Positions 17,837-56,972 of a DNA stretch of 64,000 bases are shown piece after piece. The translations under genes were made by a program, and so were the position numbers. The stretch is from Octopus vulgaris (lineage: Eukaryota): NCBI GenBank assembly GCA_951406725.2, contig OX597824.1, forward strand, positions 47,492,001 to 47,556,000, in the 5' to 3' direction. Each line of letters begins with the position of its first letter. Within the stretch, counting starts at the first letter, position 1. The notes beneath the pieces are model-generated. The model searched no databases and was not told the DNA's origin. It worked only from the letters and a program-made list of their open reading frames with translations.

Positions 17837-18463
17837 TTAAAGCAAATGTGGAGCAAAATACTTCACAAATGGGTTGTCTTTATCTTCTCCAAATATAAAA
17901 TCTAGCCATGCATTTACATATTCATCCTGGCTCATTTTACCCACATGATCTTTCACCATGCATTCAAAAACTTTGTCAATTACCTCCTTGTTGTCATATC
18001 CAAAACAAGCCAATCCCTTTTCGAGTTCATCACACGTTATAAAGCCATCTTTGTCAAAGTCAAATATTTGGAAAAATAATGTTACAGCAGATTTCAGGCT
18101 GTTCCGAGCCATAAGTGGATCAACTGTCATAAGTTGTCCAATTGCACCAATATACTCATCCTCAGAGATTTTGGCACCATTTTTAATTGCTTCAGCCATT
18201 TGTGTCACCAATGGCATAACATCACCACTGTGTTCATTGTCAACCTTTTTAAACCCATCAACAAGCCACCCATAAATTTCTTTTGCTCTGTCCTCATCCA
18301 AATTGTACTGCACTGCAAAGCGATTAGCTATAAGTTCAAAGTCTTCTTTAGCCATGAATCCATCTTTTGTAGTATCCATCATTTTAAACCATACTCTTAT
18401 TTTCTCTTTCACAAAGTCAGAAAAGTGGATTTTATCAGTTGAAATCTCTTCTAAATGTGACAT
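17837..18463 (-). CDS. Sarcoplasmic calcium-binding protein (SCP)-like EF-hand protein, 208 aa, intronless CDS
   Basis: ORF 17837..18583 read from Met41 (MSHLEEISTDKIHFSDFVKEKIRVWFKMMDTTKDGFMAKEDF). EF loops DTTKDGFMAKED and DFDKDGFITCDE, with degenerate EF2/EF4. The N-terminus resembles annelid/mollusc SCPs as recalled. A splice acceptor (ctccttgttcag|) just 5' of 18485 indicates non-coding upstream exon(s). Confidence 0.88.
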   Translation of the reverse strand: MSHLEEISTDKIHFSDFVKEKIRVWFKMMDTTKDGFMAKEDFELIANRFAVQYNLDEDRAKEIYGWLVDGFKKVDNEHSGDVMPLVTQMAEAIKNGAKISEDEYIGAIGQLMTVDPLMARNSLKSAVTLFFQIFDFDKDGFITCDELEKGLACFGYDNKEVIDKVFECMVKDHVGKMSQDEYVNAWLDFIFGEDKDNPFVKYFAPHLL

Positions 18464-19088
18464 TATGTAAAACTTTTTGTTGTCACTGAACAAGGAGAAA
18501 CAAATGTGTAGTGACCTGTATGAAAGAATCCTGATCAAATGTTTACATTTCTCTGTAGGAATTATCCTTTTAAAGCAAATCATGATCAGATTATCTAGAT
18601 TTAATCAGATTAGCAATTTCATCAGCAATAAGATTAACCTCTCAAATCTGCAGAAAAAAACATTATTCATTTTTTAATTGCATCTGGGGGAAATATCTAT
18701 TACAAATCCCAAACAGCTTTGTAGTCATGGGAATATTCCAAGTATGAATCTGAGAATAAGCAGAACTCTGTGTTTGTGAAAGTGTCAAATGGTTGAGATA
18801 TTGTAGTCATGAGTTCATATTCTCATATATTCATTGTATCACTCGGTAGGAGATATTTAATTTTGTGTGGTTCTGTCTACTTTGTCCTGGAATCTATCCA
18901 AGAAGAGAATCATACTTTAATAGATTAATATCATAAAATAGAATTTGCAAGTTCCTATGTGTCATAGAAATGTGTGTTCATGTAATCCTTAAATTTTGAG
19001 GAAAAATTCTAAAGTTAACCATCTACATTAGTAACAGCTTATTAAATGAAAAGATTAAAATTTCTTTTACTAATTACTTTGTAGCTGT

Positions 19089-20026: not shown

Positions 20027-21041
20027 ATTAGCAATTACATTGGTTGGTAAACACCAGTGCTGTATTTAAATGTTAAAAACCTATTGATAATATTTAGTAT
20101 CTCTATCTGTGCTAATGTTGATTGAGACCATAAGCAATAATGGTGGGTTAATTCTATTAACATTTGTCTATCATAGTTAATATTGGCAATGAGAAAATTA
20201 GTTGCAGTAAGAGCCATTAGATTCTTGGTAGGAAATGAGAAGTGAATTGTTCACTTTTCTTAAGAACTTTTAGTAACTAGATGTTAAATAAAATCAGTTT
20301 ACAGTCTAATCTTGTTCGTAACTTACATTTTCTTGCACAGCACTTGTTAATAGAAGGAAAATCATAACAATTGTTGTGGTATTAGAAGAGTTGGATGCAG
20401 TAATAAAATAGTAATATTGTCTTCAGCAAAACAACAGTGCCAGAAAATCTGATTCCATATTCTTATAGTTGTCTCTAACAAGGACCCCGTGATTTGCTTT
20501 GTCTTCTCTGTTAACAATATAAGTCTTGTGTGAACTAACATGGTAATTTAAGAGTGACTGGGAAGAAATTATAATGGTTTTCAGCACCATGTGTCTCCAA
20601 TTCTTTTCTACTCTTGACACAAGGCCTGTAATTTTTGGAGAGGGGGCCGGTTGATCTAAATTGACTCCAGTATGCAACTGGTACTTGATTTATTGACCCT
20701 GAAAGGATGAAAAGCAAAGTCGACCTTGGCAGAATTTGAATACCGCTAAACATTTTGCCCAGCATGCCAACATTTCTGCCAGTTTGCCGCCTTCCATATG
20801 TCTCCAATTATCACAGTTGTTTGTGATCTTCATGTAGCTCCAGTGGGGGGAAGTATACTTGAAATGTAGAAATGCATTGGATAAAGAGGGACTATCTCAT
20901 GCCGACACTACAAAAAGACCAGCATTCAAATTGACAGCAGACCACGAGATACAGTGATTGATTAAGTAAAATGAAGGATCATTAAAGACAGTTGCTGAGG
21001 TACTCAAAATATCTGATGAGGTAGGAAACATACATGATAAT

Positions 21042-21319
21042 ACAGTTCTATATTTAAGAGATGAGGAATTATGTACATTATTTACATTTGATGGGCATAT
21101 GGCGTAGTGGTTAAGAGCGCGGGCTACTAACCCGAAGATTCCAAATTCGATTCCAGGCAGTGACCTGAATAATAACAACATCAAAAAATACCTTAGGAAT
21201 GAGAACCCAGGTTCGAAATTTCCCCAAGACACCTGATGAAGGCTGAAGGGTATATCAGCTGAAACATTGTGTTAACAACAAACAAGATGAGGACAAATAT
21301 CCATCAAATGTAAATATGT
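21042..21319 (+). mobile_element. tRNA-headed SINE with hammerhead-bearing Penelope-like 3' part and inverted 5' tail
   Basis: A box TGGCGTAGTGG (21100-21110) and B-box-like AATTCGATTCC (21144-21154). Bases 21074-21094 are the reverse complement of the 3' end 21301-21320, extended by a ~32-nt tail. Flanked by the direct repeat ATACATGATAAT (21030-41 and 21320-31). Confidence 0.78.
21228..21273 (+). ncRNA. Degenerate minimal type I hammerhead ribozyme inside a SINE
   Basis: GACAC CTGATGA A GGCTGA-agggtata-TCAGCT GAAAC ATT GTGTT. Stems I and II pair. Stem III would be palindromic ACGT but reads ACAT, consistent with CpG decay. Confidence 0.65.
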
Positions 21320-21349
21320 ATACATGATAATCACCTGGATAATCTAGAA

Positions 21350-22665
21350 GGTGTCATACTCAATAACTGACAGCAATAGCACTGTAAACTGCTACAAAGC
21401 AAATGAGATTCTTTAGAGAGAAAATTATGAAGGCACTAAATTGTTGGATTAGGATGTGAAGGTCGTAGAGGGAATCATAGCACAATTGATCTGTTAGAAA
21501 TAACCTAGATGAGCAGTTTGGCTTTGTGCCTGGAAGAGAAATCACAAATCTTCCTAGTGAGGCAACAACAGGAAAAATATTTAGCTAAGATTAAGCCACC
21601 ATGCTTAGGATTTGGAGAAGGCTTTTGATAAGGTTCCATTTTCTGTAATCTTGTGATCATGAAGGAAACTAGGCTTGTGAAGGCTGTATAAAGGCACAGT
21701 AAGTAAAATGAAGGTCAACAATAAATTTAGTGTCAAGGTAGAGGGTCCTCAGCTCCCTCTATTCGTCAGTCTTACAGGCCATTACAGAGGAGTTTATGGC
21801 TAGTCATCCATGGAAACTCCTAAAAACTAGTAATCTTATTCTTAAGGCTGAATCTATGGAAGAATTAAGAAATTACTTAGGTGTGAGAAAAGAAGACAGG
21901 ACCCTTGGTATCATCAAGGAAATGGCTTTGATATGCAGAAAAGGAGTCTATATGCCATACCCAGTGTAAGCTATGGACACATGAGAAATGTAGTAGAACT
22001 GTTGGTAGGTTAACAGAGAAGGCATACTTGGTATGTGACATACTTTGGAACAATGCATACTAGGAGCATGCTGGAAATAGATTCTCTTGAATGCCAGTTG
22101 GCTCTCTAGAAGTAGAAGGTAACTTCCATTATCGAGGTGGCATTATTAGCCAGACAGTTGGTTTAGATAATGGGTTGGAAAAAGTTAAGGGAGATATTTC
22201 TGCTGCTAGTAACAAAGTTCTTTTTCCACCAGAAAGAAAGGCAGATTGTATGATGCTTGTGTTAGAACTCCAATGCTGCATAGTAACAAAATGGAACCTT
22301 TAAATGCATAAGACTAGAAAGAAATGATAGCAGTATGTTTTAATGGGTATGTAATATTAGTGTGTATTAACACAAGAGTATGAGTGAGGTGAGAGAAAAA
22401 CTGCATATAAGAGAAATCAGCTGTTTTATGCAAGAAAGGAGGCTGTGGAGATGTAGACATAGAAGATGATGCTACATAAGGATAATGAGCATCTGCAGAA
22501 GACAAAAACTATAAATTAATTGGCATTAGGAAGGGCATCTGGTTGTAGAAACAAAGCCGGATGATATGTTTGATGAGCAGTATTGCCCAATAAGAAATGA
22601 CTCAGACATGATAATTCATCCAACCCATGCTAACATGGAAAGAGAATGTAAAATGATGATGATAA
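21350..22665 (+). mobile_element. Old decayed copy of the same RTE LINE family
   Basis: Remnants of QFGFVPG, EKAFDKV, LQAITEEF and QCKLWTH are colinear with the 35142-37697 copy. Ends in the same (GAT)n tail. Confidence 0.7.
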
Positions 22666-24499
22666 TAACTTTTTAAAAGTGGAATTTTTTTGTTGTCTTA
22701 ACAAGAATGATATCCTACCTATTTCTACAGAAATTACAACACTGGGTAATATCTGTGTTGTTATGCAGCATGGTAGAAATAACAGCTAAATTTTGATAAC
22801 AGCATACTTTTAAGAATAACACATTAAATAATGTAGTCCAAAGCATCTAATGTCTGACAAAAAAGACAAGATAATCAGGGTTGTAATGCTTTTTTAATCA
22901 TAAGGTTGTTAATTAGGGATAAACGACAACAAAAATTTAAAAAATAGTCAAAGTGTTTTCGAAGATGGTGGATTAATAAGGATTTTGAGATTATTTTATA
23001 AAAATATACTGCATTGTAACTTGACATCTCAATTACAAGGTTTAATTCAATATCTGATGAAATTATCAACACTAATAAGATTCCAATACACAAACCTTCC
23101 TCAGAAAAAAAAAAAGTGTTTATTGATCATAACAGAGGTCGGTCAAGCTGCAATCTATGTTTGCCTGTTGTACTGAATTTTCATTACTTGGCAATATAAC
23201 AGTATTGTAACTGTGCAAAGCTTGCTTAAATTGTACTATGATTGAACTTGTAATGCATTTTCCAAGAACCTGCTGGTACTGCTACTGCTTCGAATATGAA
23301 TTATGCAGTTTGAGCTGTCCTACAAAAGTCCTGTGCCAGTGCCACATAAAAGCACTCATGTCAGTGCCACTTAAAAGCGCTCATGCTGATGCCATGTTAA
23401 AAGCACCTAGCATACATTGCAAAGTAGAAATTAAGCCAAATCAGACTGGCACCTGGTGCAGCCCTCTAGTTTGCCAGCTCTGGTCAAACTGTCCAACCCA
23501 TGCCGGCATGAAAAACAAATGTTAAAAGGTGGTGGTGGTGGCGGCGGCTGTTGTTGTTGTTGTTTAGGAGGAGTATATGCTTATATCTTTCCCACAAGGA
23601 TATTGGCAGCAAACTACCCATTTGCTCTACTACAACAAATTTAGACATATTATTATGGCCTGTAAAAATTTTTAAAAAGCTTTATTACAAATTAATAGTT
23701 CGATTCAATTCCATAGGGAGGTAGGACGGTGATCAGTATTTTGTAATACCTGGTGTGGCAAATATATTTACCCATTACAGTAATCCCTTGACTATTGCAG
23801 GTGTTATATATTGCAGGTGTAAATATATGTAGACCTGGATTTTTAGAGCTTCCTCTTTATCTATGTTACTTGCTTGGAAGTATTGTCAGTGTTGGTAAAA
23901 TCTCTTGCAGTATTTCTTCTGGCTCTTTGTATTCAGAATTTAAATCCCACTAAAATCAACTTTGCTTTTCATCCTTCTGATGTTGATAATATTCACTTAT
24001 CTCTTCTCCTCAAAATTGCTGATCTTGTTTCTAAATTAGAATCAATTCTTAAAGGCTGAAAGCTGATAATTGCTAGAGTATCAGAAAAAATTTCTTGCCT
24101 TATTTGTTCCAGCTCTTTACACTCTGAGTTCAAATCCTGTTAAGATCATTTTCTTCTTTTCATCAGTTTGTGGGGTCAATAAAATCAAGTACCAGTTGGG
24201 TGCTGGGTTTGATGTAATTAATAAACCCTCTTCTTATTATAATACAAATTACACTCTTTATAAGTTAGTAAATTCTAATCCATACAAAAGATATCAGGAA
24301 GGAAAAACAACTCAAACAGGAGTACAAAGTAATTAATTAATTAATTAATTTTACACTGTTAGAAAGAAACAGAAAAGAGTTTTTGGGCTCTTTCTCAACA
24401 ATTTATACATTTATCAATATAAAGTAAACCCAAACATTCTTGATAAAGCCCACTCAGTATGTTGACTAGAACACGTTTTCTACTGAGAAGCATCATTAA

Positions 24500-24719
24500 C
24501 CCTTTTGTTACTGTATTTATTTTGAGATGCTCTGTGTTTCTTTTAATTACTTTAAATATAACAAAGAATTTTGTAAAATAACTTAGTTATCATTAAGCTA
24601 GTTTTAGGAACATAAATTGTGACTAAGGTTTGGTGGAAGATTTAAATTCAAAACTTATGAAAGCAAGACATTTGTACTCAGAGCCAAAGCCGGTTTCAGC
24701 CAGGTTTGTAACAAAAGGG
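24500..24719. mobile_element. piggyBac-type MITE
   Basis: TTAA|CCCTTTTGTTAC ... GTAACAAAAGGG|TTAA: a perfect 12-bp TIR with TTAA target duplication. Confidence 0.88.
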
Positions 24720-25293
24720 TTAAGCACTATTGCTTCTGTTGACTTTTATCTATCATGCTTCATTAATGTCTGTTTCTTAATAAAGGATGGTCTTCTTCTT
24801 TACAGCATGAAATTGGTTACTTTGTACTTTGTGTTGTTTTTCTCTCCTGAGATCTTTTAGATATACTAGGTGCAACATATACATTTACCCATTAGGTAAA
24901 CATAATAAGTCATTCACTTTGTTTGAGAAAAAATTAAGGGCAGTGTGAAAGCAAAGGATGGCCATTTTGAATTGTAAATGTATGTAAAATATTGATTTCA
25001 AATTTTGGCACAAGACCAGCAATTTCTGGGGAGGGATAAATCCATTACATCAACCCCAGTATTCAACTGGTACTAATTTTATCAATCCTGGAATGATGAA
25101 AAGCAAAGTTGACTTTGGTGGAATTTGAACTCAAAACATAAAGACAGACAAAATGCCACTAAGAACTTTTGCCTAGGAAGCTAACAATTCTGTCAGTTCA
25201 CCATATAAAGTATACATAAAATATTGTCATAAATATAACAATCAGCCTGTAAACTTCATTAACAAAAACATAAAACCTTTCATTTTATGATTA

Positions 25294-25528
25294 CAGTAAT
25301 CACTTGTTATATCGCGGTTCACCTATTGTGGTTTATTATTTAAGCTTATGACGATTCCTCCATGGTGTTGTTTTGCATTTATAATAAAATATATATATAC
25401 AAATTATAAAAATAATTTAAAAAAAGTATGCAGTACAGTACTGTTTCTACTTTGTGGATTTTCACCTATCGCAGGGGTGGGGTTGGTGGGGTAAGAACAT
25501 AACACCTGTAATAGTCGAGGGTTTACTG
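25294..25528. mobile_element. Tigger/pogo-type MITE
   Basis: TA|CAGTAATCACTTGTTATATCGCGG ... AATAGTCGAGGGTTTACTG|TA: imperfect TIRs with TA duplication. Confidence 0.65.
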
Positions 25529-26805
25529 TAAAGGGTAAATATATTTACCACACCAGGTATTACAAAATGCAGATCACTGTCCTACCTCCCTATGGAACTG
25601 AATCAAACTATTAATTTGTGATAAAGCTTTTTTAAAAAAATTTTACTGGGCATAATAATTAATATGTCTAAATTTGTTGTAGTAGAGCAAATAGGTAGAT
25701 TGCCATAACCCCAGTGTAAATAAAGTGAAGTGAAATGGCGTTATACTAGGAGCTGAAACTAGATCATAAACCAAACTCACTGATAGCTTGATACATGCTT
25801 GTAGAAAGATAGTGGTACAGCTGATTGATGATCAATACATACCTGGTACTTATATTATCAATGATGGATATATAATAGGTAAAGTTTGAAAGTTGAACAT
25901 CAAAAATATGGTCGCAAACTGCAAGAAGAGCATCTAACCATAGGAAAATCTGTCTTAAGAAAATTTCATTTAACTAAAGCAAGCATGGAAAAGAGGACAT
26001 AAAAATGATGGGTTCTTTAAATTATCACTAGTTATTGACAGCCAACAAATGTACAGAGATGATCTTATTGATTTTTATCTTAACTATAAATATAAGCTGA
26101 TACATATCTTTACCTTCTCAGTATACTGTTCTTCCCTTTTCATTTTAGCATAAATCCTTTATCACATTCTGGGTTTTAGCAGGTTATTAATGCAAACAAC
26201 TTAGACATACCTTTATAATGGATTCCTATTTAATAAGCAGTTGTTACTTAAAAATAATTTTGTAAGTGTTATTGGTCAAGGTGAACTTGAAATCCAACCT
26301 TTTTAACCTCATCTAGCTGTAAGCAACATCTTTAGTTTTCCTACAGTAAAATCCTTTGAAATAATAGAATCCAGAGAAGTCAAAGTAGTTACGAGGGTAA
26401 GGTGTCACTCTATGTTCTTCATAATAGTTATGATTTCAAAGCAATTTATTATAACTATTGTATATTGTCCTTGGAGAAAAAGAATTACTCTATCTTCCTA
26501 TGTATGAAATAACAAATATTATTACTTCACAATTGAATAGTAGGAAGGCTACCCAGCTGTAACAGTATTTTCTCTCAGTATTCAATAATTATCAAATTTG
26601 CATTTACTAAACAGTTTAGTAAACACAATGGTTGAAACACCAAACATATATATATATATTTAGTGTCAGTGGTATGAAAACAGCATCTAGTGCATATGGA
26701 AAAGTTGTTGGCATTAGGAAGGCATCTAACAATAAAAACCATGCCAAAGCTGACACTGGAGTTCAATGCAGTCCTCTGACTTGTCAGATCCTGTCAAACT
26801 ACCCA

Positions 26806-27222
26806 AATTCTATTTTTTCTTTCTCACTTGACCGCTGGTAGGGGAGAATTTTTCTAGAATTTTTTGCTACCCTAAAATTTATTAATTAATGATTTTTTGG
26901 CTAATTTTGAAATTAAATCGGCAGTTTATATTTACTGCTGAGTAAACCATGCGAGCGTGGTGGATTTTGAAAATTTATAGCATATAGACTCGAGGCGTGT
27001 TTATCATCGCCTAGTGGATATATGTTAGTCCTTGGCTTTTCTGCTGACGAGGCAACGCCAGTGGTAAATGAATTAATTAAATTAATTTATTTACGAAAGA
27101 TTGCCGAAACTATGCATAGTCCAGAAAGGAGAGGGTAAACGTTTTTATTTCTCTTTCCATTTCAGAATTATAACTATTAGTGGTTTGGAGTTTAGCTGCT
27201 CTTTCTAGTAAGTCGGATGTCC

Positions 27223-27225
<3 letters not shown>
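26806..27225 (+). mobile_element. CpG-retaining hammerhead-bearing insertion (Penelope pLTR/retrozyme-like); boundaries approximate
   Basis: Begins where a SINE tail (26665-26805) breaks off and ends at a (TA)n tract. CpG is more frequent than in the flanks. Contains the 27036-27129 hammerhead. Confidence 0.5.
27036..27129 (+). ncRNA. Type I hammerhead ribozyme, intact, with extended stem II
   Basis: Stem I CTTTTCTG(27036-43)/CAGAAAGG(27122-29); core CTGACGA(27044-50); stem II GGCAA(27051-55)/TTGCC(27101-05); GAAA(27106-09); stem III ACTA-TGCA-TAGT; cleavage triplet GTC(27119-21). Confidence 0.88.
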
Positions 27226-27279
<54 letters not shown>

Positions 27280-27365
27280 TATATCTTATGTTATAGATAC
27301 ATGCACACAGACATACATATATATATACACACACATGCACATACACATGTGCGCACATATATGCT
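27226..27365. repeat. Compound (TA)n/(CA)n microsatellite; similar tracts at ~38465, 53105, 54432, 56240, 60478, 63030 and 63415
   Basis: Seen directly in the sequence. Confidence 0.9.
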
Positions 27366-28552
27366 TGAATGTACAAGATTTGTTAGTAGAAAATTATTTA
27401 TTCATAGTTGATGATTTACTTAGTTTCTCTCTATGTGCAATTAATCAGTTAACAAAAAAATATGAACAGCTGATCTTAGTTCAGATCTTCAACATCAAGA
27501 GCAATGCTTGAGGGTTGAGAATGATTCTCCACCAGATTTAACTTTGTGTGGACCCACACATGACTGTGTTGGCCAATGTGGGATCCACAAGTCTAGTTGC
27601 AGACCTGGCATTTGCTGTTCTCTACAGTTATGTCTATCCTTTTGATGTTTGGTTCATTCTGTGTTGAAATGTGGGCTCTATCATAAATGGTCAAAGCTGG
27701 TTGATGTCAAAAAGATTAACATATTTGAAGTGAATCAGTAATTTGTTGGTTTTTATTGCCTTTTTTCTCATGTATTTTAAATTTTAGTGGGTAACTTTTA
27801 GTCCTATCACACAGATAACGTCTCCAGAAAAGTAACAAGACAAACTGTACATTGTCCATGCTGTAAAATGGTTTGTGAATAGAAGGGTATCCAGTTGTAA
27901 AATCCATGCTTGTTTCCTAAAAAGGATGAATGAAGCAATAATTCAAAATAAATCTGATAAAGAATAGAAGCAACTCTGGTCTTGCTGCAGACAGGCAGTC
28001 TAGTGTTGCCTGTAGTGTGCTTGAGAAAATATTATCAGTTCAAACTGTAAAGTGACTGCTGATAGGAAGGACATCTAACTGTAAACCATGCAAAGAAAAA
28101 ATGTATCAAAGATTGGTAGTTTTCTCTGTTGCTCTGTGCTTGATGACAAAGGACTGAAATAAGTACTGAAACAAAATGCTATAACAACTGTCCATCTCAA
28201 GCCAGCATGAGAAAAACAGACATAAAATGATGAACTTTATTATAATATTCTGGAGTCTATTACTCTCAACCATTTTCCTCTCAATACAATTTAAACTGAG
28301 GAAACTAAGTTTTGTATCAAACCAAGTGACAATAAGTTCATTTAGAGTTTCACGACTAAATAGGCCCCTTGAGGAAACTAAGATACTTTACCAACCAATT
28401 GTCATTTAACAAGTTAATTTCATAACCAAGTAGCTTATTCATTAATTTTCTTAAGTGGAGTTAACAGGTTTATCCAAGTATTCAGTGTGCCATCTCAATT
28501 CACAAATCAAGAGACTAAGATCTTATTTCTTCTGCCACCATAATGCCTCTTA

Positions 28553-29417
28553 CAGGGTGTTAGGGCTAAATATGAGGATTACTTTGTCTCCATTTTCAGG
28601 AACAGCTTGATGTATTTGGTGAGTTGTCAATGGCATTGGAAAGAATAAAGATTAAAGTTGTAGTTGAGAAAAAGACATGAAGGACTGGAAGTCATTTGAA
28701 TATAGGAAAAGATTTATCTGTATCTTATTGTTTGGCACCAAGTATCAAAATGCCGACATCATGACTGCTGCTCAATGCTCAATGTGAACACTGCAAAGGC
28801 TGTAAGGTGTGACATGCACAACTGCAATGGAGACTACAAAGCCATGGCCAGCAAGAAGGTGATGGTCTTTGGATGTGTCTCCAGTGACAGTGATGTCATG
28901 CCGCCTCACATCTTTGAATAGGGCCCTAAGTTCAATTCAGATGCTATGTGAAGCTGCTGGAGACTGTGGTCAAACTCTGGCTGGAGAGGGTTGCTGCTGG
29001 AAGACCATATTGTGTGGCAGCAGAATTAGGATCCTTACCATACCTCTGGAAATAGTCAGAAGTGGTTGTTAGAGAATTTCTACACTTCACTAGTCCAATT
29101 TCTGGTCTCCTAATTCCCCTGATTATAATTTCATGGATTACTATGAGTGTGGCATAGTTGAGAAAGACACAAACTGCTCTTCTAGCAACATGAAGGCTGA
29201 GCTGGTGGCTAGGATCAAGGAGGTATTTGAAGATCTGCACAGAGGCACCGTGAGAATTGCATGCATCAGGTTCCAGAGACTACTTTGAGTAAACTGTTAT
29301 CTCTCAGCTATAATCTAGTTGATATTTAAAAAAATTTTTTAATATACTTTTATTTTTGAATGGGGTAATTGTTTCCTTTTCTTTTTAAGCAAACTCAAAT
29401 TTAGTCCAAACACCCTG
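28553..29417 (+). mobile_element. Internally deleted Tc1/mariner-superfamily transposon (maT/DD37D-like)
   Basis: TA|CAGGGTGTTAGGGCTAAAT ... ATTTAGTCCAAACACCCTG|TA terminal inverted repeats. Remnant FWSPNSPDYNFMDY motif near 29100-29140. Confidence 0.8.
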
Positions 29418-30942
29418 TATATTGAGACATAATGTTACAATAGAATCTGCAGAAACTACTAAAAAATTTTAGATTTAGTTTATGTTTTAAGACCTCCAAC
29501 TTCACTTTTGAAGTAAATTAAAACCAATTGAAATTTAATCTGACTTCTGTATTCCAAATAATGTTAGTTTCTTTTGTCGTATTATTTGTTTCTTGCATCA
29601 CTATGACAAAAGTGTCACACTTAATCTTTTGCAAAACTTGATACTAAATGGTTTAGCATTTAGATTATACAACCTAGAAATTCTATCATAAACTAATAAG
29701 AAAAACTGAACTAAGAATATGTTAAGCAGCTTAGTTAACATGAAGCTTGTCTTTGATTATTAGCATCTGGTTCATAGTTCTAGTCAAAGTATTTGTCAGG
29801 AATCCAATAGTCTTGCACATTGATATGTATTATGGATTCAAGTTAGCTACTAATGAGAAAAGAATTATATTTCAAACACTGATTGATGAATAGATTTAAT
29901 GTAAAGGAAGTCCTTATTGGATTAGTTTCTTAATACAGATTACTCATGTTTCAGTTGTATAGATTATGTGTGGAGTTTCTAGGCTAAAATGGTGAGAAGA
30001 ACTCTGCATCATCGTCACTACTGATCAGCTAACAGAATCATTAGTATCAGAACAAATACCGTAAAGTATTTGTTCTGGCTCTTTATGTTCCAAGTTCAAA
30101 TCCCACTGAGGCCAACTTTATTTTTCATCCTCCAGAGTTGATAAAATGCAGTACCAATCAAGTACAGGGGGTCAATGATAGTGACTAATCCCTTCCCTTC
30201 AAAATTGCTGAGCTTGTACCAAAATTAGAAACCCTTATTATTATTATTGTTGTTGTGATGATGAGGGATAGGCAAAATCATTAGTACATTGGACAAAATG
30301 ATTTGTAGTATTGCTCCTGGGTCTTCTGAGTTCAAATCCTGCTTAGGTCAACTTTGCCTTTCTTCCATTCAGGTTGATGAAATATTGTACTAATCTAGTA
30401 TTGAGGTTGATGTAATTAACTTTCCCTTTATCCTCAAAATTGTTGACTTTCTGCTTCATAGAAATAATTATTATTGTTGCGATAATTATTTAGTCATAGC
30501 ATAGATTAGAGAATGCTGCAAAACAAAATAATATTTTAGTTTCTCTGATTGTATCTGATTAAGTCATTTTCCAGGGTGTACGTCTGGTAGAAGCAGCCAC
30601 AACTAAAACCTCTCAGCACTTTTTCATGAAGTATACGTCATCCACTTGTATTAATGTCCATTCCACCATAATCAGGAAACATACAGAAAATTCTACAAAT
30701 TTGAATATTTGCAAGTTTTATTCCTAAGCACTTTTGCTTGTGGCAACTTTCAACTACACACACACATGTATATATATAAAGTGGTGGTATGTTGTCAACT
30801 TGATGTGACAGTCTCATGAAAGGGAAGAATACTACTGCTATTTAGCCTTAGGAAGCACTGCTTCCTGTTGGTCTTGAGACATTTCCTGTGTCCTTATGTT
30901 TACAAAGGGGGGGATAAGCACCTCCACTCAACAGAGCCAGCA

Positions 30943-30985
30943 GCCAGAGACTAGTTTCTGAGTCGTTGCTCATCATCAGTCTGGC
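30943..30985 (-). ncRNA. Minimal type I hammerhead ribozyme
   Basis: The minus strand reads GCCAGA CTGATGA TGAG-caacga-CTCA GAAA CTAG TC TCTGGC. This gives a perfect 6-bp stem I, a 4-bp stem II, palindromic stem III ACTAGT and a GUC cleavage site. Confidence 0.82.
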
Positions 30986-31049
30986 CATGCATTGTGTATG
31001 GATGAAGACAGCTGTGAGAAGTGTTATACTCTAACAGTAGAGGGAACCT

Positions 31050-31576
31050 GTGGAAGAGGTAGACCCAGGAAGACATAGGATGAGGTAGCAAATCATGACC
31101 TTCGAATATTGAGCTTTACAGAGGCAATGACAAGCAACCGAGATCTTTGGAGATATGCTGTGCTTCAGAAGACTTGGCAAGCCAAGTGAGATCATAACCA
31201 TGGTCGATGCCTTGTCACATAACAGGCCCATTTAAAAGTACCCTTCAATTGTCAGGCAATATGCTGTACTTGAGAAGACCCATTGAGTCGAGTGAAATCG
31301 TAGTCATGGGCGATGCCAGTTCCACCTGACTGGCACCCATGTCAGTGGCATGTAGAAACCATCATTCAAGTGTCGCCAATCCCAGTGCCAGTGGCACATA
31401 AAAATCACCCACTAGACACTTGGAGTGGTTGGTGTTAGGAAGGGCATCCAGCTGTAGAAACCATGCCAGATCAGATTGGAGCCTGGTGCAGCCTCCTAGA
31501 TTGCCAGTCCTCAGTCAAACTGTTCAACCCATGCCAGCATGGAAAGCAGACATTAAATGATGATGATGATGATGAT
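31050..31576 (+). mobile_element. RTE 3'-UTR-derived element/SINE ending in (GAT)n
   Basis: ...ggaagggcatccagctgtagaaacc...caacccatgccagcatggaaagcagacattaaatgatgatgat, the same tail as the RTE LINE. Related tails at about 2250, 3508, 5010, 23335 and 26665. Confidence 0.7.
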
Positions 31577-34534
31577 ATATATATATATCATCATCATCAT
31601 CGTTTAACGTCTGTTTTCCATATATATTTTAAATCTGGGTTTTGTCCCTGTTAATGGGAGTGGTTGGATTTACCACAATGCCATAGCAACCACCCTCACA
31701 CCATTTCGCCATCTTGCCCGGTTTTGGGCGTCTTTCCCTCTCAAGCCAACCCTCCCAATCTCCTTGGTCTACCTCACTTTCGATGTCCATTTACCTCAAA
31801 CTGTAGCACCCACTTCAGAACATACCCTTCATCCCTCCTCACACACATGCCCATACCACCACACTCCATTTGCCTTTGCCAGCCATTCCAGTGATTCCTC
31901 CAACTCTAGCATCCCCATCAAGTCCTCAATCCTCCTCTTATCAAACAGTCTCACACCACACATTTCTCTCTCAGTCCTCAAAATTGCCATCTCTCTCTCT
32001 CAAACACCATGTCTCACTCCCATACAGCATTGCCACTCTTACACAACTATAGACCTTTCTTTTCATATTCAATGAGATGAAAAAGCCTCATGATAATAGC
32101 ATGACATATATCCTTTAAGAATATGCATATTTAAGCTCCTATTTTATTATGCCAGCAACAGCCTAATGATACCGTCTGGCAAGAGCAGTTTTTTGGGGTT
32201 GCACTGAGCTGTATTAATATAATGTAGGACAAGTGTTGTAATAATAATAATAACAATCCATGGATGGAATTTATAAATATTTTAATGCATCACTATGTGT
32301 GTTTCCACAAATCACACTTTTCTTACAATCATAGTCTGTATTCCTGGGATGATTACAGTATAGTCTGTGGTATCCATGGACGTGAGATGGATTATATTCA
32401 TGTGTTCATTTTTTCAGGTGATATAGCATTAACGATGGAAGCAGTAGATGTATAAATGAGGGTTGGCTATCAATTTTGACCAATGCAAAGGTTGGTTGGG
32501 GTATATGGGCATTCCGTATTTGGTGGGGGAGAAGATGATAGAAAGAAAGAAAGGAATAGTAGTTATAAAGGAGAGGGAGGTGTGTGATGATGTTAAACTT
32601 ATTTTGATATTTGAGTATGCAGATGTCAGTAGTATAGTTCCTTAGTTTGACCTTAGTCACAGCAGATGCCCTGCTCAATGAATTCAGATGTAGTAGGGTC
32701 AACAAATATAATTATTCAGTTGTTGGAGTTCATTGTCTGAGTTGACAAATATGTATATACAAGTTACCTATTTCTCAGTTACATAAATCAGAGTAGGACA
32801 CAACACTTAAGATAGGCTTTGTAGAATGCAATGCATCTATTATCTTCAGTCATTAGACTGTGGCCATGCTGGGGTGCCACATTGAAGAATTTTAGTTGAA
32901 CTAATTGACACTAATACTTATTTTCTTTTTAAGCCTGGTACTTATTCTATTGGTTGTTCTTGCCAAATTGTTACAGGGATATAAGCACACCAACACTGGC
33001 TGTCAAGTGGTGGTGGGGAAAACACACACACATATATCTACGAAGGGCTTCTTTCAGTTTCTGTCTACCAGATCCACTCACAAAGCTTTGATCGGCCTGA
33101 GGCTATAGTAGAAGACACTTGCCCAAGGTGCCATGCAGTGCAACTGAACCTGGAATCATGGGAATCATTGGGGAGCAAACTTCCTACCATACAGCTTCAC
33201 TTGTTCCTAATACATGTAATAGTAAGGTTTGTTGAACACATTCCTTGTCATAGGGTTTGATGCCATAGTTAAATGTTTAGTTTTAGATTCAGTACCATTA
33301 CATGACATCTTGGTCAAGTATTTTCTATTATAGCCCCCAGGTCCACCAAAGCCTTTTGACTGGGTTTGGTAGATGGAGACTGAAAGAAATCTATCATATA
33401 AATATATCAACATCATCAGTGTTTTGATGTCCACTTTTCAATGCTTGCATAGGTCAGACAGAATTCATTAAAGCTGATTTTTCTATAACTGGACACCTTT
33501 CTCATCACTGACATTTTTCCAAGCAAAGTATTATTTCTTCATAGTGACATGTTTTCACGGAAGATTGCAAATGGAGATTGCTAGTATGATGGTAATGTTT
33601 GTTTACAACTGTGGTGCAATGTCAAGACAAAGAGAACATACACACACCCATACAATGGGCTTGTTAGAGTTTCCCTTCACCAAATCTACTCACAAGGTCC
33701 TAGTTGGATCAAGGCTTCCGTAGAAGACTCTTGCTCAAAGTACCAACATTGGGATTGAACCTCTCAACCACCAAGCCATACTTACATTATATAATGTGTG
33801 TGTGTGCAAATCTGTATGAATGTTTACATTCTGCACATCACATGAAAAAGCACTAAGCTACAAATGGTGAAATTTTTTGACATTCTCTCTCAACAAATTA
33901 CCTGGTAGCTCTGCAATTTGAAAGACATGAAGTAAAAAAAATCTCTTATTTGAGAAACAGTTAGGGTTAGCAATAGGAAAAGCATCTGGCTGTATAACAA
34001 TGTCTCAATATATGTATTTATCTAGCCCATGTTAACATGGGAAAACAGATGTAGAACAGATTACAATCAAAATAGTATTTAAAATTCTTTAAAAGAAAAA
34101 TATATTAATGATGTGAAAGCTTTAGAGGATGTACTTATATATATATATATGTTGTGTGTGTCTCTCCCTAATGTGCTAGCTTGACCTTGCACATTAGTTG
34201 TAAACAAATGCCACCCACATATAAGTGATGTCATTTATTTCCAACATCTGTGAAAACAGCTTAGTGTTTGTAATAGGAAGGGCATTCAGCTGTAGAAAAT
34301 CTACAGCAATGACTTCAGTATGACCTATGCAAGCATGAAAAAGCAGATGTTAGAACACTGTTGATGTGTGCATACATACATACTTCACTCACAAAGTATT
34401 GGTCACCCTACTTGCTCAAGATGTTACACATAAGAAATCCAAAATCATATGACAACAAAGTAAACTTCACAAGTATGTAGCCATTCCTGTGCCTTTTTAT
34501 ATTTCTGTAAAATTTATTTAATTATTTATTACTT

Positions 34535-35141: not shown

Positions 35142-37697
35142 TCATCATTGTTTAATGTCCGCTTTCCATGCTAGCATGGGTTGGATGATTGACTGAGGGC
35201 TGGCGAACCAGATGGCTGCACCAGGCTTCAATCTTGATCTGGCAGAGTTTCTACAGCTGGATGCCCTTCCTAACACCAACCGGTCCGAAAGTGTAGTGAG
35301 TGCTTTTACGTGCCACTGGCACGGGGCCAGTCAGATGGTACTGGCAACGACCTCGCTCGAATCTTTTATACATGCCACCGGCACAGGTGCCGGTAAGGCG
35401 ATGCTGATAACGATCACGCTCGAATGGTGTCTTTTACGTGCCACCGGCACGGGGGCCGCATAGCCGCTCTGGCAATGATCAAGCTCGGATGGTGCTCTTA
35501 ATACTCTACTAGCACGAGGCTCAAGTGCCAGTAAGGCGACGCTGGTAACAATCATGCTCGAATGGTGCCTTTTAAGTGCCACTGGCATGGAAGCCAGTTA
35601 GCTGCTCTGTCAACGATCACACTCGTATGGTGCTCTTTGCACCCTGCTAGCACAGGCGCCAGTCATCAAATTTGATTTCACTTGCCTGAACAGGTCTTCG
35701 CAAGCAGAGTTTTAGTGTCCAAAGAAGGAAAAGGTACACATAAGTGGGCTGGTTACGCCCCTGAGATTATGGTCTCATTTGGCTTGCCTGGTCTTCTCGC
35801 GCACGGCATATTTCCAAAAATCTCAGTCACTAGTCACTTCCTTGGTGAGGCCTAAAGTTCGCAGGTTGTGCTTCACCACTTCATCCCAGGTCTACCTCTT
35901 CCACAGGTTCCCTCAACCGCTAGGGTGTGGCACTTTTTCACACAGCTGTCCTCATCCATTCTCGCCACATGACCATACCAGCACAGTCATCTCTCTTGCA
36001 CACCACATCTAATGCTTCTGAGGTCCAACATTTCTCTCAAGGTACTTATACTCTGTCGAGTATGCACACTGACATTATACATCCATCGGATCATACTGGC
36101 TTCATTCCTTGCGAGCTTACACATATCCTCAGCAGTCACAGCCCATGTTTCACTGCCATGTAGCATGGCTGTTCGTACACGTGTCATACAGTCTACCTTT
36201 TACTCTGAGCGAGAGGCCCTTTGTCACCAGCAGAGGTAAGAGCTCTGAACTGAACTGCTATTCTTATTCTAGCAGCTACACTTTCAGCACACCCTCCCCC
36301 ACTACTGACTTGGTCACCTAGGTTACGGAAGCTATCAACTTATTCTAGTTTTCCTCCCTGGAATGTGGCGTAAGTTGTTCTCTGCACATTTTCAGTGTTT
36401 ATTGCTCCCGAGCATCTGCCACATACAAAAACTATCTTCCCCGTTAGCCTAGCTTTGATATTACTGCACCTCTTATGTGTCCATAGCTTACACTGGGTAC
36501 ATCTTATAGAGTTTCTACCTACGCCTCTGCTACAGATCGAGCAGAGCCATCTACCTGAAGGGATTTGTGGATTGCCTGCCTTCCTACTTATTAGGACTTT
36601 GGCTTTAGCTAGGTTGACTCTAAGGCCCTTCGATTCTAATCCTTGTTTCCACACCTGAAACTTCTTTAGTTCTGATAGTGACTCAGCAATTAGAGCAAGG
36701 TCATCAGCATAGGGGAGCTCCCAGGGGCATCCTGTCTTGAATTCCTCTGTTATTGCCTGGAGGACTATGATAAATAGGAGGGAGCTGAGGACTGAACCCT
36801 GGTGGACCCCTACCTCTACCCTGAATTCTTCAGTGTACTCGTTGCCAACCCTCACCTTACTTACAGCGTCCCTGTACATGGCTTGCACAGCTCTCACTAA
36901 TCATTCATCTATCCCTAGTTTCCTCAATGACCACCAGATAAGGGATCTGGGGGACTCTGTCAAAGGCTTTCTCTATGTCAACAAAAGCCAAGTACAGGGG
37001 CTTATCTTTGGCTAGGTATTTCTCTTGCAGCTGTCTTACCAGGAATATAGTATGTGGTGCTTTTCCCTAGCACAAAACCAAACTGCATCTCATCCAAACT
37101 AACCCTCTCCATGACCTTCATTACCTGATCCAACAGCTTGATACCTCTGTAATTATTTGTATCTAAAGCGTCACCTTTACCTTTGTAGCAGTCGACTATT
37201 ATACTGTTACACCAGTCATTGGGTATGACTCCTTCGTGTATCACCTGGTTAATTATACAGGTGACTAGGGTATAGCCAACACTGTCAGATATTTTGAGCA
37301 TCTCTGCAGTAATTCCTGATGGGTCGGGGGCTTTCCCTGTCTTCATACTATTAATTGCTTTATCTACCAAGGTACTGTCAATTTGGATAGCTGGTCCCTC
37401 TGTTGGGTCGACATTCGGCAGACTCTCTTTCTCTCATTCCTTTTCTTTATTCAGCAACCTTTCATAGTGGCGTCTCCAAACCTCTCTCTTTGCATCCTCA
37501 TTTAGCGCAAGTGAACCATCATCCATGTGAACACACTTCTCTCCTACAACATTATGAATCTCTCTCACACACTGTCTTGCAACACGAAATACCTCAAGTC
37601 TTTGGTCCTCACGGCGCAGAACATTGGCAAATTTTTTCTTATCTGCTTCCCTTCTGGCTAAATAAACCTGCCTCCTAGCTTCCCTTCTGGCAGTCAA
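35142..37697 (-). mobile_element. 5'-truncated RTE-clade LINE (RT with inserted PHD-type finger; 3' UTR minisatellite)
   Basis: ORFs 37434..37697, 37002..37370 (KAPDPSGI, YKGKGD, NYRGIKLL, QFGF), 36340..36897 (GVHQGSVLS, YADDL) and 35987..36187 (MLHGSETW). Frameshifted. The 3' tail is shared with SINEs in the window. Confidence 0.9.
35300..35665. repeat. Minisatellite (~60-70-bp unit x6) in RTE 3' UTR
   Basis: CTTTTACGTGCCAC(T/C)GGCAC...GCCAGT...CGATCACGCTCGAATGG-like units at about 35303, 35363, 35431, 35495, 35569 and 35633. Confidence 0.8.
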
Positions 37698-38466
37698 GGG
37701 GTTAAGGTATACTAATATTGAAGAAAAATAAAGATCAAAACAAAATACAAGAGCTACAATTTACAAACTCAAACATTTCAGATTGTTAATAATACAGAGA
37801 AATAGCAAATGATAAAATACACATACACACTACTTAAATAGTACATATATAATTAAGAATTTTATTTAGTCTTTTAAGTTTATTTTTATTTACTCCATAG
37901 ATATGTAATTTTCAAAATAAAGGACCAAAAAAAATATGTACAGTTACCATTCATTGGTCAGTAATATAGATTTTTTTTTAAGCCAGACATTTTCAATATT
38001 GGAAAATGGACCCTCAGATATAGAACAACGTGAGATTCTTATGCAGGGCAGATTACACCACTGATATAAAACCTACACATCAAAAATTGTCATAGCCAAT
38101 CGTTTCATCAGTTTTCTCTGCTGCAGCAACTACTTTTAAATGCCAGAATACAGCTGTTAGACATAATTGTTAATTATCTGCTAACAATTACCATATACAA
38201 TCTATTTGAAGTGTAATGTTAAAGGTTGGTTTTCAAATATTCTACCACATTATTACAATATTTAAGGTGGAAACAGGTGATATATATATAGCATGTTCTA
38301 TAAATTCCATGGCCAGTAAGGCAAAAGGCTTGTATGTTACTGCAGCCACATAAACTAGGTACTTGACCCATCAACTGGTTCCATTCCAAATCAACAGCTG
38401 AGTGGTTAGTATTCACAATAGCCAAATATCACTTCACATTTTTTGGCAAAGAAAATGGCTATATAA

Positions 38467-44840: not shown

Positions 44841-44929
44841 AAGGTTGAAACAGAAATATATAAGATACAAGGGCTATTGCAGTATTTTGAACTGGACTTG
44901 ATTTTGAATTTAAATCCCACCAAAGTCGA

Positions 44930-46115
44930 CTATGGTGAAACTCTTTGCGTTGGGTGTAAGGGACGAACTCCATAACTGGTTGAAGTCCTTTATTTTCGGC
45001 CAAAAAGAGGTTGTCACAGTTCTAGGACAGCACTATTCACCCAATGAGATGACATCTGGTGTACTACAGGGATCTGTTTTTGGTTGCCTTTTATTTGTTG
45101 CATATGTTAATGACATAGATGCCGACTTAAAGAATGTCACAGTGCTGAAATATGCAGATGACATCAAGCTGTACCTCGAAATAAAGAGGTCAGATCCTGT
45201 ACACTATAGATCTCTATTGGAAGCAGACCTGGACACAATGCAGCAGTGGATCATGGACTGACAACTCAAGCTGGCTGTGGACAAATGTACCACCATGCAT
45301 TTTGGGAGGAGAAACCCAGCGTCCACTTACTCCCTCCACAACACTAATCTCAAAAAGACTTCGTGTGATCGTGACCTGGGTGTTATTGTCGACAGCGATT
45401 TGTGTTGGACAAAACACATCGCTAAAATTGCCAAGATGGCTGAGGGTGTCTTGGCATCACTCACCAAGTCCTTTGTGAGCTGCTCTCCGGCTATCTATCT
45501 GCGGCTTTATATAGCTATGGTAAGACCTCACCTGGAATTTGCATCACCGGTCTGGAACCCCTATCTTGCCTAGGATATTAATATCTGGAAGCCGTTCAGC
45601 GATGTGCAACCAAAAGAATACCCTCCATCAGGCATTTGCCATATTCTGAACGCCTTACTTCCCTGGGCATGGACACATTGAGACTCCGACGTCTGGCAGC
45701 TGACTTGGCAGACACCCATAAAATTATTAACCATCTTACAAACAATAACTCTGAGCACCTTTTCAAATTCCACCCGTCTAACACCCGTGGACATATTTAC
45801 AAAGTCAGAAAACTGCACAGCTCCCATGACTTTAGGAAACATTTTTTCACGCTGAGAGTTGCTGAAGCATGGAACAAACTGCCGGCATCAGTTGTTAGTT
45901 GTCGGAGCACTGCATCCTTCAAAACTTCCATGCTTTCTGAGATTCGCCAACACTACACCTGATTTTCTCCCCTCCATACACACACAAGCATGTATCTGAC
46001 TCATACATTGTTCGCTTTCCAGACATTTGTACATTACTGCATATACTTTATACGCACTTTCTGACAAGTTGTGGTGCACTTGAGCATTGTATAAATAATC
46101 TCATTATTATTATTA
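44930..46115 (+). mobile_element. 5'-truncated CR1-clade LINE
   Basis: ORFs 44932..45261 (GVLQGSVFG, YADDIKL), 45277..45573 (RDLGV, RPHLEFASPVWNP) and 45636..45962 (FFTLRVAEAWNKLP). Ends in (ATT)n. Confidence 0.9.
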
Positions 46116-56551: not shown

Positions 56552-56972
56552 TTAATGATAATTTTCTTTCTCAAATACTAACTTGACAGCTTCTAGTACA
56601 TTTTGGGTAACATAGGTTGGTTTCTTCAGTTCACTGTCAAGTACAAAGTCTCGGTGATTATGGTTTGAGATTTCTTTTCCTCCATATGTTACAAAATCAC
56701 TGTCAGTTGTGTACACTCCAGTACAGACAAGTATTGACACAGATTTGTCAGTAAGGATAATACTTTCATCTGTCCCTGAAGACATCAGATCTATTACGGT
56801 GTCCTCAGTGTCCATCAGTTCGTCAACACTGGACATGTCCGAGTTGATACTAGAATTAGTCGTGTTGGCTAACTGCTGAACCTTTTTGGCTTGTTTTCTT
56901 TGTTTTGCAGATCGAGAATGCAGATATCGGTTATATAGATTCCCTCCATATATGTCAGTCTCTGGGTTATCT
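56552..56972 (-). CDS. HDHD5: HAD-like hydrolase domain-containing 5 (CECR5), terminal coding exon
   Basis: ttttgcag| acceptor, phase 2. Translates (G)DNPETDIYGGNLYNRYL...SILVCTGVY...HNHRDF...NVLEAVKLVFEKENYH*, matching the HAD motif IV GDNPxxD and the C-terminus of HDHD5. Includes ORF 56552..56836. Confidence 0.92.

Follow-up and report, generated by a model that had tools for sequence, protein, structure and literature searches.

Three type I hammerhead ribozyme motifs, here called A, B and C, lie within 10 kb of one another in a 64,000-nucleotide stretch of the Octopus vulgaris genome (GenBank assembly GCA_951406725.2, contig OX597824.1, positions 47,492,001 to 47,556,000 of the forward strand). 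This whole stretch, AT-rich and laden with repeats in a genome of 2.8 Gb, is referred to as the window. We consider it highly probable that the motifs are the hammerheads of three unrelated repeat families with the insertion signatures of Penelope-like elements (PLEs), likely placed independently by PLE enzymes. Judging from its coding relatives, element A is the pseudo-long terminal repeat (pseudo-LTR) together with the first ~40 codons of an autonomous Poseidon-type Penelope, hereafter Penelope A. As their genomic copies reveal them, B and C are closed units of 458 nt and ~350 nt without a collinear open reading frame (ORF), and their inserts are truncated, longer than one unit or inverted. 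An earlier note, made from the letters of the window, had reported three hammerheads with different stems at these sites, and this reading holds: a type I descriptor applied to the window returned two matches, B at 27044 (+) and C at 30979 (−), and A is a decayed copy of its family. The type I core (CUGANGA, GAAA, a UH cut site and three helices) is complete in the window copies of B and C, and in A at the level of the family.

The coding nature of family A becomes apparent in copies elsewhere in the genome. Five of 30 A loci reach upstream into endonuclease-coding sequence, and in a search anchored in the endonuclease 24 of 30 loci run through the stop codon and ~30 nt into a tRNA-like head, with reverse transcriptase (RT) motifs upstream. 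A search with the 5′ part of the ORF recovered copies that carry hammerhead and tail upstream of it, and a complete tandem junction of Penelope A is found in L260/L355. The order of the unit is tRNA-like head, (AAT)n, ATG, ORF through the hammerhead, tail, N-terminal, RT and GIY-YIG regions, stop, and head again. The single ORF encodes a PLE-type RT, recognised by its motifs and by Pfam RVT_1, as well as a C-terminal endonuclease of the GIY-YIG type, which is known by motifs and collinear homologues and not by Pfam. It starts at an ATG at window position 21199 and passes through the hammerhead into the Penelope N-terminus; the hammerhead's own ATG was rejected as the start, the frame opening upstream at 21199. 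A 58%-identical relative of 847 amino acids (P0001) has the same read-through of the hammerhead, and the Penelope A protein is 40% identical to an Anolis protein over 470 amino acids. The Anolis RT stretch fetched only family A (30 of 30 loci, the best 30 of 150 matches), and no Poseidon control lacking the tRNA head was present among these 30 loci of the same genome.

Family A displays the pseudo-LTR with hammerhead, the partial tandems, the 5′ inversions and the optional tail. Inversions were found in 18 of 30 copies anchored at the 3′ end, and a crude test detected target-site duplications (TSDs) of 9–14 bp in nine of 30 copies. The family has two 3′ ends, one at +245–250 and one at the end of the tail, a feature described for PLEs (PMC8557442, PMC11167929). 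Short solo pseudo-LTRs beginning at the tRNA head make up most genomic copies of A. Two further groups of loci were noted: Penelope A copies with internal deletions that bring a piece of the ORF up against the tRNA head or the endonuclease region (L146, L240, L247, L248), and a single 3′-truncated copy multiplied within a segmental repeat on several contigs (L102, L104–L107).

The layout of the window copy of A marks it as a solo pseudo-LTR that carries an inverted tail on the 5′ side and has a TSD of 12 bp, an arrangement described for PLEs (PMC8557442, PMC3846280). The inverted segment, a PLE-type 5′ inversion, carries the codons that follow those of the forward segment; in tandem-junction copies the frame continues into the N-terminal, RT and GIY-YIG domains, and the window copy has a premature stop at codon 16. 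The earlier note's statement that no Penelope ORF is present is correct for the RT and endonuclease domains, neither of which occurs in the 64 kb, but not for 21199–21319 and the inverted 21036–21094, which encode N-terminal codons. Similarly, 'non-coding' and 'non-autonomous' suit B and C, but not A, which is part of a Penelope ORF and the end repeat of an autonomous element with ORF-bearing copies elsewhere. Ordinary truncated fragments of full-length Penelope, which the note had set against its own proposal, describe A alone.

Window hammerhead A escapes the descriptor solely because its stem III reads ACAT. Among 30 family copies stem III is ACGT in four, ACAT in ten, ATGT in two and otherwise in two, and 12 depart from the pattern elsewhere; by this comparison the window motif is an ordinary CpG-decayed copy of an ACGT family. 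The palindromes first given for B and C are those observed, and the ACGT given for A is that of the family. Stems I and II of A-type hammerheads covary, with 90.6% of cells paired and 53 showing double changes, a level reached in 0 of 500 shuffles; the set, confined to the A-type motif, comprised 20 Penelope-linked sequences chosen by core pattern only, six of them from family A. A CTGATGA at 21013 was ruled out as a further hammerhead, having no stem II.

The segment at the 5′ end of A resembles a tRNA. Its best alignment among 36 tRNA sequences is to tRNA-Arg(TCG) of the same genome (z = 8.3 against shuffles), and A and B boxes are present in the head at the 5′ end of short copies; in the window copy one G of the B box is changed to A. 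In 30 copies picked by their 3′ 119 bases only, 20 begin within −9 to +7 of the head, nine are truncated further down and one continues into the ORF. Twenty of the 21 copies that reach +7 therefore stop within −9 to +7 (binomial P 2e-23 against a constant upstream loss rate), and the ORF-bearing copy L356 begins at the head too. Because 5′ ends cluster at the head, the template RNA of A most likely begins there.

Runs of four or more T (T4 runs) are scarce in Penelope A. There are none in its 2515-nt consensus unit, where 4.4 are expected by base shuffle (P 0.008) and 2.8 by synonymous shuffle (P 0.03); the merged consensus lacks a short endonuclease segment, and runs were counted also on the unit and on natural copies. 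In the latter, with 122 kb of alignments counted and overlapping loci kept, the rate is 0.46 T4 runs per kb. By comparison, a Neptune ORF of the same genome has eight in 1553 nt, LINE (long interspersed element) fragments in the window have six in 1421 nt and six in 1049 nt, and the median for 59 Penelope ORFs from other organisms is 4.35 per kb, with none at zero (59 of 80 metagenome loci; 21 with matches under 1300 bp were left out). This terminator scarcity is suggestive, not decisive, of a PLE driven by RNA polymerase III (Pol III). We tentatively raise the possibility that A is a coding retrotransposon whose template RNA is made by Pol III from a captured tRNA-Arg promoter in the pseudo-LTR, whose 2.5-kb unit has lost its Pol III terminators by purging, and whose transcript, through internal starts of the RT, gives rise to tens of thousands of solo repeats that resemble short interspersed elements (SINEs). 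Several observations weigh against this proposal or against the head as start site and promoter. The head scores as a tRNA by alignment only, with 11 isotype-anticodon classes compared; neither ARAGORN nor Rfam called it a tRNA in the window, nor did Rfam in four A loci, and ARAGORN found nothing in the whole window. An imperfect hairpin over the 5′-end cluster is a possible hot spot for fold-back. One locus without the tRNA head (L361) has 0.43 T4 runs per kb, as few as natural A copies, and an uncapped RNA would translate poorly. No tRNA-headed PLE was found in the literature searched, which excluded Repbase, Dfam and most subscription papers.

The short A copies might alternatively form an independent tRNA-derived SINE lineage, with Pol III masters of its own and a borrowed Penelope protein. 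Their sharp 5′ end at a head with A and B boxes is compatible with this, as is their dominance: in 60 evenly spaced 10-kb genome tiles (600 kb in all), family A occurs in ten and its ORF in none. A Pol III SINE with a hammerhead is known in the schistosome Sm-alpha (PMC6765202). The head, however, belongs to the autonomous element, the ORF-bearing copy L356 starts at it as well, and no diagnostic substitution marks the short copies; 46 short and 34 long copies show no fixed non-CpG difference and yield one consensus. Divergence is lower in short copies (0.030 against 0.056 in long ones), at least partly as a sampling artefact, the short copies having been sampled by their likeness to the window copy, which biases the comparison of ages. 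Since short and long copies share a consensus, a separate SINE lineage is not needed, although solo copies could still re-amplify; the candidate has lost support, within the bias of the sample, and we regard it as possible but unlikely.

Element B of the window starts in the previous monomer and crosses an AT-rich site at 26885 where many copies begin or end. Its hammerhead (fold z = −3.5) has a stem I of 8 bp, a stem II of 5 bp with an inserted 14-bp hairpin, and a stem III formed by the 12-nt palindrome ACTATGCATAGT; the strict core and stem II pattern is kept in 15 of 30 copies, all with the identical palindrome. The 3′ end of the 458-nt unit joins its own 5′ start, and this monomer junction is crossed in ten of 30 loci. 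When loci were anchored 3′ of the core, nearly all 30 ended at one of two sites in (TA)n, ~379 and ~464. An inverted partner is present in 13 of 30 B loci, two of which are both arms of one locus.

Element C belongs to a closed unit too. The unit junction is found in L064, L068, L089 and L134, and opposite-strand partners adjoin 12 of 40 matches. Stem I is 5–6 bp in the family; since the window copy breaks off at 30984, flanking sequence makes up part of its 8 bp. At three loci C lies at or near an end of A: inside a duplicated A 3′ end in L134, with its own 12-bp TSD in L083, and joined directly to A in L047. Around the window copies of B and C no TSD was detected. Both families have features of retrozymes, namely a non-coding unit of 150–500 nt, one type I hammerhead and a head-to-tail junction, and bear the PLE insertion signature without an ORF of their own. 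No PLE ORF collinear with either was found in 90 loci, and their ends have no sequence similarity to those of Penelope A or of one Neptune family.

A chimera offers a view of the enzymes that may move B. L295 fuses 1.4 B monomers to a 3′ end of Neptune type in the same orientation; no further B sequence follows it, and the junction is best read as a template switch. L295 points to a class of enzyme able to act on B rather than to an established partner, because similar joins between Penelope A and Neptune exist: in L156/L351 a Neptune copy meets a Penelope A copy at the latter's inverted arm, and Penelope sequence does not resume past it, which is read as a template switch involving two PLE clades. 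A young Neptune-type family (96–98%) inserted in (TA)n (L261–L290) was noted in passing; its 3′ region has GAAA followed by the palindrome ACCGGT, with no canonical CUGANGA core before the GAAA.

Four points count against the reading of B and C as passengers of PLEs or against the enzymes assigned to them. Autonomous elements that end like B or C might be present in few copies, given that reading covered the top 30 loci of each search. Both families are far rarer than A, since none of the 60 tiles holds either. Chimeras cross PLE clades, as L156 demonstrates by joining Penelope A to Neptune. Lastly, the B-like part of L288 is only 69–79% identical to B, and this locus was downgraded as a second B–Neptune chimera.

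That all three elements are ordinary 5′-truncated ends of full-length PLEs, with the tRNA-like part a passive old insertion and the 5′ cluster produced by fold-back of the RT, appears improbable. It is partly true of A, which is collinear with an autonomous element; most solo minimal hammerheads are interpreted in this way in PMC4209133, and a short inverted repeat does overlap the 5′-end cluster of A. Yet in both B and C the 3′ end of the unit is fused to its own 5′ start without an intervening ORF, and the RT gets past the stronger stems of hammerhead and tRNA, losing nine copies in 30, while 20 of 21 stop at the head. The coding strand of A is also nearly free of T4 runs. Replication of B and C as circular RNAs by a retrozyme rolling-circle route, independent of PLE proteins, is very doubtful. 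They are closed units of retrozyme size with inserts of up to 1.4 monomers (L295, L316), and mussel repeats of 350–390 bp do make circles (PMC7229834); against this stand the 5′ inversions, two fixed 3′ ends and (TA)n targeting, which are signatures of PLE enzymes, and the lack of any long tandem array of B or C in the 90 loci. Inserts of more than one unit are explained just as well by a linear tandem template. Assembled contigs of sequencing runs presumed to be RNA contained no joint at the predicted cut site of B, which carries no weight either way.

Placement of the three families by PLE enzymes, the reading that we favour, could operate as follows. The head of A would be the start site of the element, and probably a Pol III promoter. 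If reverse transcription began at a 5′-proximal internal site, it would copy the RNA from there to the head, leaving a SINE-like insert of 230–280 nt, and starts at a downstream site would produce the long copies. The anole element's RT has two internal start sites in vitro, both a short way into the ORF (PMC11167929). The two 3′ ends of A match these sites, so that a start at the first of them on an RNA beginning at the head would yield the short copies. B and C would be dispersed retrozymes, non-autonomous passengers of PLEs whose RNA template is tandem or circular. B was probably moved by a (TA)n-targeting enzyme of Neptune type and C possibly by Penelope A, both partner assignments being weak.

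The clustering of three motifs within 10 kb is unremarkable at the density measured. In the window, two strict palindromic matches compare with none in 100 dinucleotide shuffles, which gave a mean of 0.02 descriptor matches. The tiles hold nine strict matches, against a mean of 0.4 over 12 shuffles. Both the window and the tiles thus lie well above shuffled sequence in the comparison that the earlier note had proposed, and its suggestion of a large and diverse hammerhead population is borne out: the extrapolated genome total is ~42,000 strict motifs (95% interval 19,000–80,000). Three of the nine tile matches belong to family A and six, from five tiles, to others (L176, L197, L204, two in L211, and L215); these type I hammerheads include five motifs unlike A–C (example stems ACATATGT and ACGATCGT). 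Three of the six have long stem II inserts resembling that of B, and L204 is apparently another closed tandem unit, adjoining (TA)n. Family A alone extrapolates to ~47,000 loci (95% interval 22,000–86,000). A first look at the genome gave 2877, 1834 and 2160 candidates for the three families, all of them dispersed families, with 40 candidates scored for each. With ~0.25 hammerhead-bearing loci per 10 kb, the probability of at least three per 64 kb is 0.22, and ~600 comparable 10-kb tiles are expected genome-wide. An Rfam scan of the window reported no hammerhead (E ≤ 10) and no tRNA, only miRNA matches driven by microsatellites, and four A loci scanned in the same way gave a like result. Thousands of solo PLE-linked minimal hammerheads per animal genome, in several families, have been in print since 2014 (PMC4209133), and a large, diverse population is the published norm for animals.

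The note had also proposed that stem III palindromes could act as family codes that keep dimer cleavage within a family. The other molecule of a double hammerhead contributes, on its substrate strand, the 3′ arms of both stem III and stem I (PMC4209133). Computed stem I pairing is 5, 8 and 6 bp within the families and 0–1 bp across them, and stem III homoduplexes (−1.7, −4.8 and −15.9 kcal/mol) are more stable than heteroduplexes (−1.5 to +1.0). Heterodimers are therefore predicted not to form on account of stem I, with no need of the palindrome. Of 25 hammerheads beside Penelope ORFs of other animals, 21 (15 distinct stem II sequences) have ACGT, and a single assembly contributes contigs with at least four different families among them; the pattern used admitted only AC..GT stems of up to 10 nt. 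With a palindromic stem III two copies can pair into a double hammerhead, and palindromy is required for that folding in any case (PMC4209133); cleavage is dispensable for insertion in vitro (PMC11167929). Although the palindromes do differ among families of the O. vulgaris genome and their homoduplexes are the more stable, a selected code is not supported by these comparisons and seems most unlikely. Stems I and III jointly would account for any restriction to a family, as a by-product of divergence with no dedicated code.

Table 1. Positions of elements A, B and C and their parts in the 64,000-nt window
Feature	Position	Strand	Remarks
Left copy of 12-bp TSD of element A	21030..21041	+	Perfect direct repeat with 21320-21331; partly overlaps element ends
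Inverted 5′-truncated second A copy: 3′ end and optional tail	21036..21094	−	98% match to Penelope A tail/ORF start
tRNA-Arg-like head of Penelope A pseudo-LTR	21093..21168	+	A box 21100-21110, B box 21145-21154
First ~40 codons of Penelope A ORF, through hammerhead	21199..21319	+	In-frame continuation in tandem-junction copies
Hammerhead A, minimal type I, core 21233	21228..21273	+	Predicted cut after 21268
Right copy of TSD of element A	21320..21331	+	Direct repeat with 21030-21041
Element B, 419 nt of closed 458-nt non-coding unit	26810..27228	+	96% to family consensus
Hammerhead B, type I, core 27044	27036..27129	+	Predicted cut after 27121
(TA)n microsatellite at B 3′ end, the family's usual target	27226..27263		Repeat scan and family copies
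Element C, 5′-truncated, 209 nt of closed ~350-nt non-coding unit	30776..30984	−	94% to family consensus
Hammerhead C, type I, core 30979	30943..30984	−	4-bp stem II, palindrome ACTAGT; predicted cut after 30949

The remainder of the window contains other repeats and two open frames. Broken LINE fragments with an RT and a PHD-like finger lie at 36340-37760 (−), 21530-22480 (+) and 30985-31200; the first two are related to each other, and 36343-36900 matches Pfam RVT_1 (E 3e-10) and PHD (E 8e-6). Another broken LINE RT at 44914-45962 (+) (RVT_1, E 2.5e-10) is, we assume, CR1/L2-like. Inverted repeats of 139 nt at 23669-23807 and 25499-25637, 91% complementary and 1.7 kb apart with other repeats nested inside, have the structure of a miniature inverted-repeat transposable element or a DNA-transposon relic. 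A near-perfect palindrome of ~80 nt (31539-31621) recurs elsewhere at inversion points of a common repeat. An intron-free frame of 255 codons at 17837-18604 (−) has EF-hand domains (Pfam EF-hand_7, E 8e-14) and presumably resembles a sarcoplasmic calcium-binding protein; a second open frame at 56552-56992 (−) has no Pfam match, and we take it to resemble the last exon of a HAD-family hydrolase gene.

Set against known systems, the finding as first posed is largely known biology, and the tRNA-headed, terminator-poor Penelope is a new form of a known kind of element. Octopus genomes reportedly harbour the tRNA-derived SINEs OK, OR1 and OR2 (Ohshima & Okada, 1994), of which the latter two are said to be of tRNA-Arg origin. 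Family A is likewise a high-copy repeat of ~270 nt with a tRNA-Arg-like head, and may or may not be one of the three; OR2 is listed as a CORE SINE (PMC4758252). At roughly 47,000 loci, family A would be a major mis-annotated repeat. It suggests that a SINE can arise other than from a LINE tail, and possibly that a coding retroelement is transcribed by Pol III, neither of which appeared in the literature searched as delimited above.

The closest relative in organisation is Poseidon_Ac of the green anole (PMC11167929, PMC3846280), with which family A shares an RT with C-terminal GIY-YIG, a pseudo-LTR that overlaps the ORF start with the hammerhead located there, two RT start sites that give rise to the tail, AT-rich targets and 5′ inversions. 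In contrast to Poseidon_Ac, the ATG of A is upstream of the hammerhead and not at stem II, and unlike Penelope/Poseidon PLEs the pseudo-LTR begins with a tRNA-Arg-like segment bearing A and B boxes; none of the 25 hammerheads beside Penelope ORFs of other animals has such a box pair within 400 nt upstream. The promoter of Drosophila Penelope is described as LINE-like and internal (PMC2377424). Schistosome Sm-alpha and Sj-alpha SINEs also place a Pol III promoter, predicted in the case of A, before a hammerhead, but they are tandem and non-coding with canonical active hammerheads, whereas the head and hammerhead of A form the end repeat of a coding element (PMC6765202).

The three motifs as a group resemble the minimal PLE hammerheads of metazoans (Cervera and De la Peña, 2014; PMC4209133) in their thousands of solo copies and several families, in the palindromic 15.2–16.2 and loop 3, in the bulge before stem II of A and in opposite-strand pairs 100–700 bp apart; the 12-nt palindrome and 45-nt stem II insert of B are larger than usual for such forms. 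B and C are similar to animal non-LTR retrozymes (PMC7229834, bioRxiv 10.64898/2026.07.22.740005) in being non-coding units of 350–460 nt with one type I hammerhead, dispersed as monomers. They differ in occurring as monomers, partial dimers and inversions, not as arrays, and no pseudo-LTR homologue of either was found. Animal retrozymes have been proposed to be non-autonomous derivatives of PLEs (PMC7229834, bioRxiv 10.64898/2026.07.22.740005), and the PLE signatures of B and C, together with the B–Neptune chimera, provide direct genomic support, in an invertebrate, for retrozyme-like units that ride on PLE proteins.

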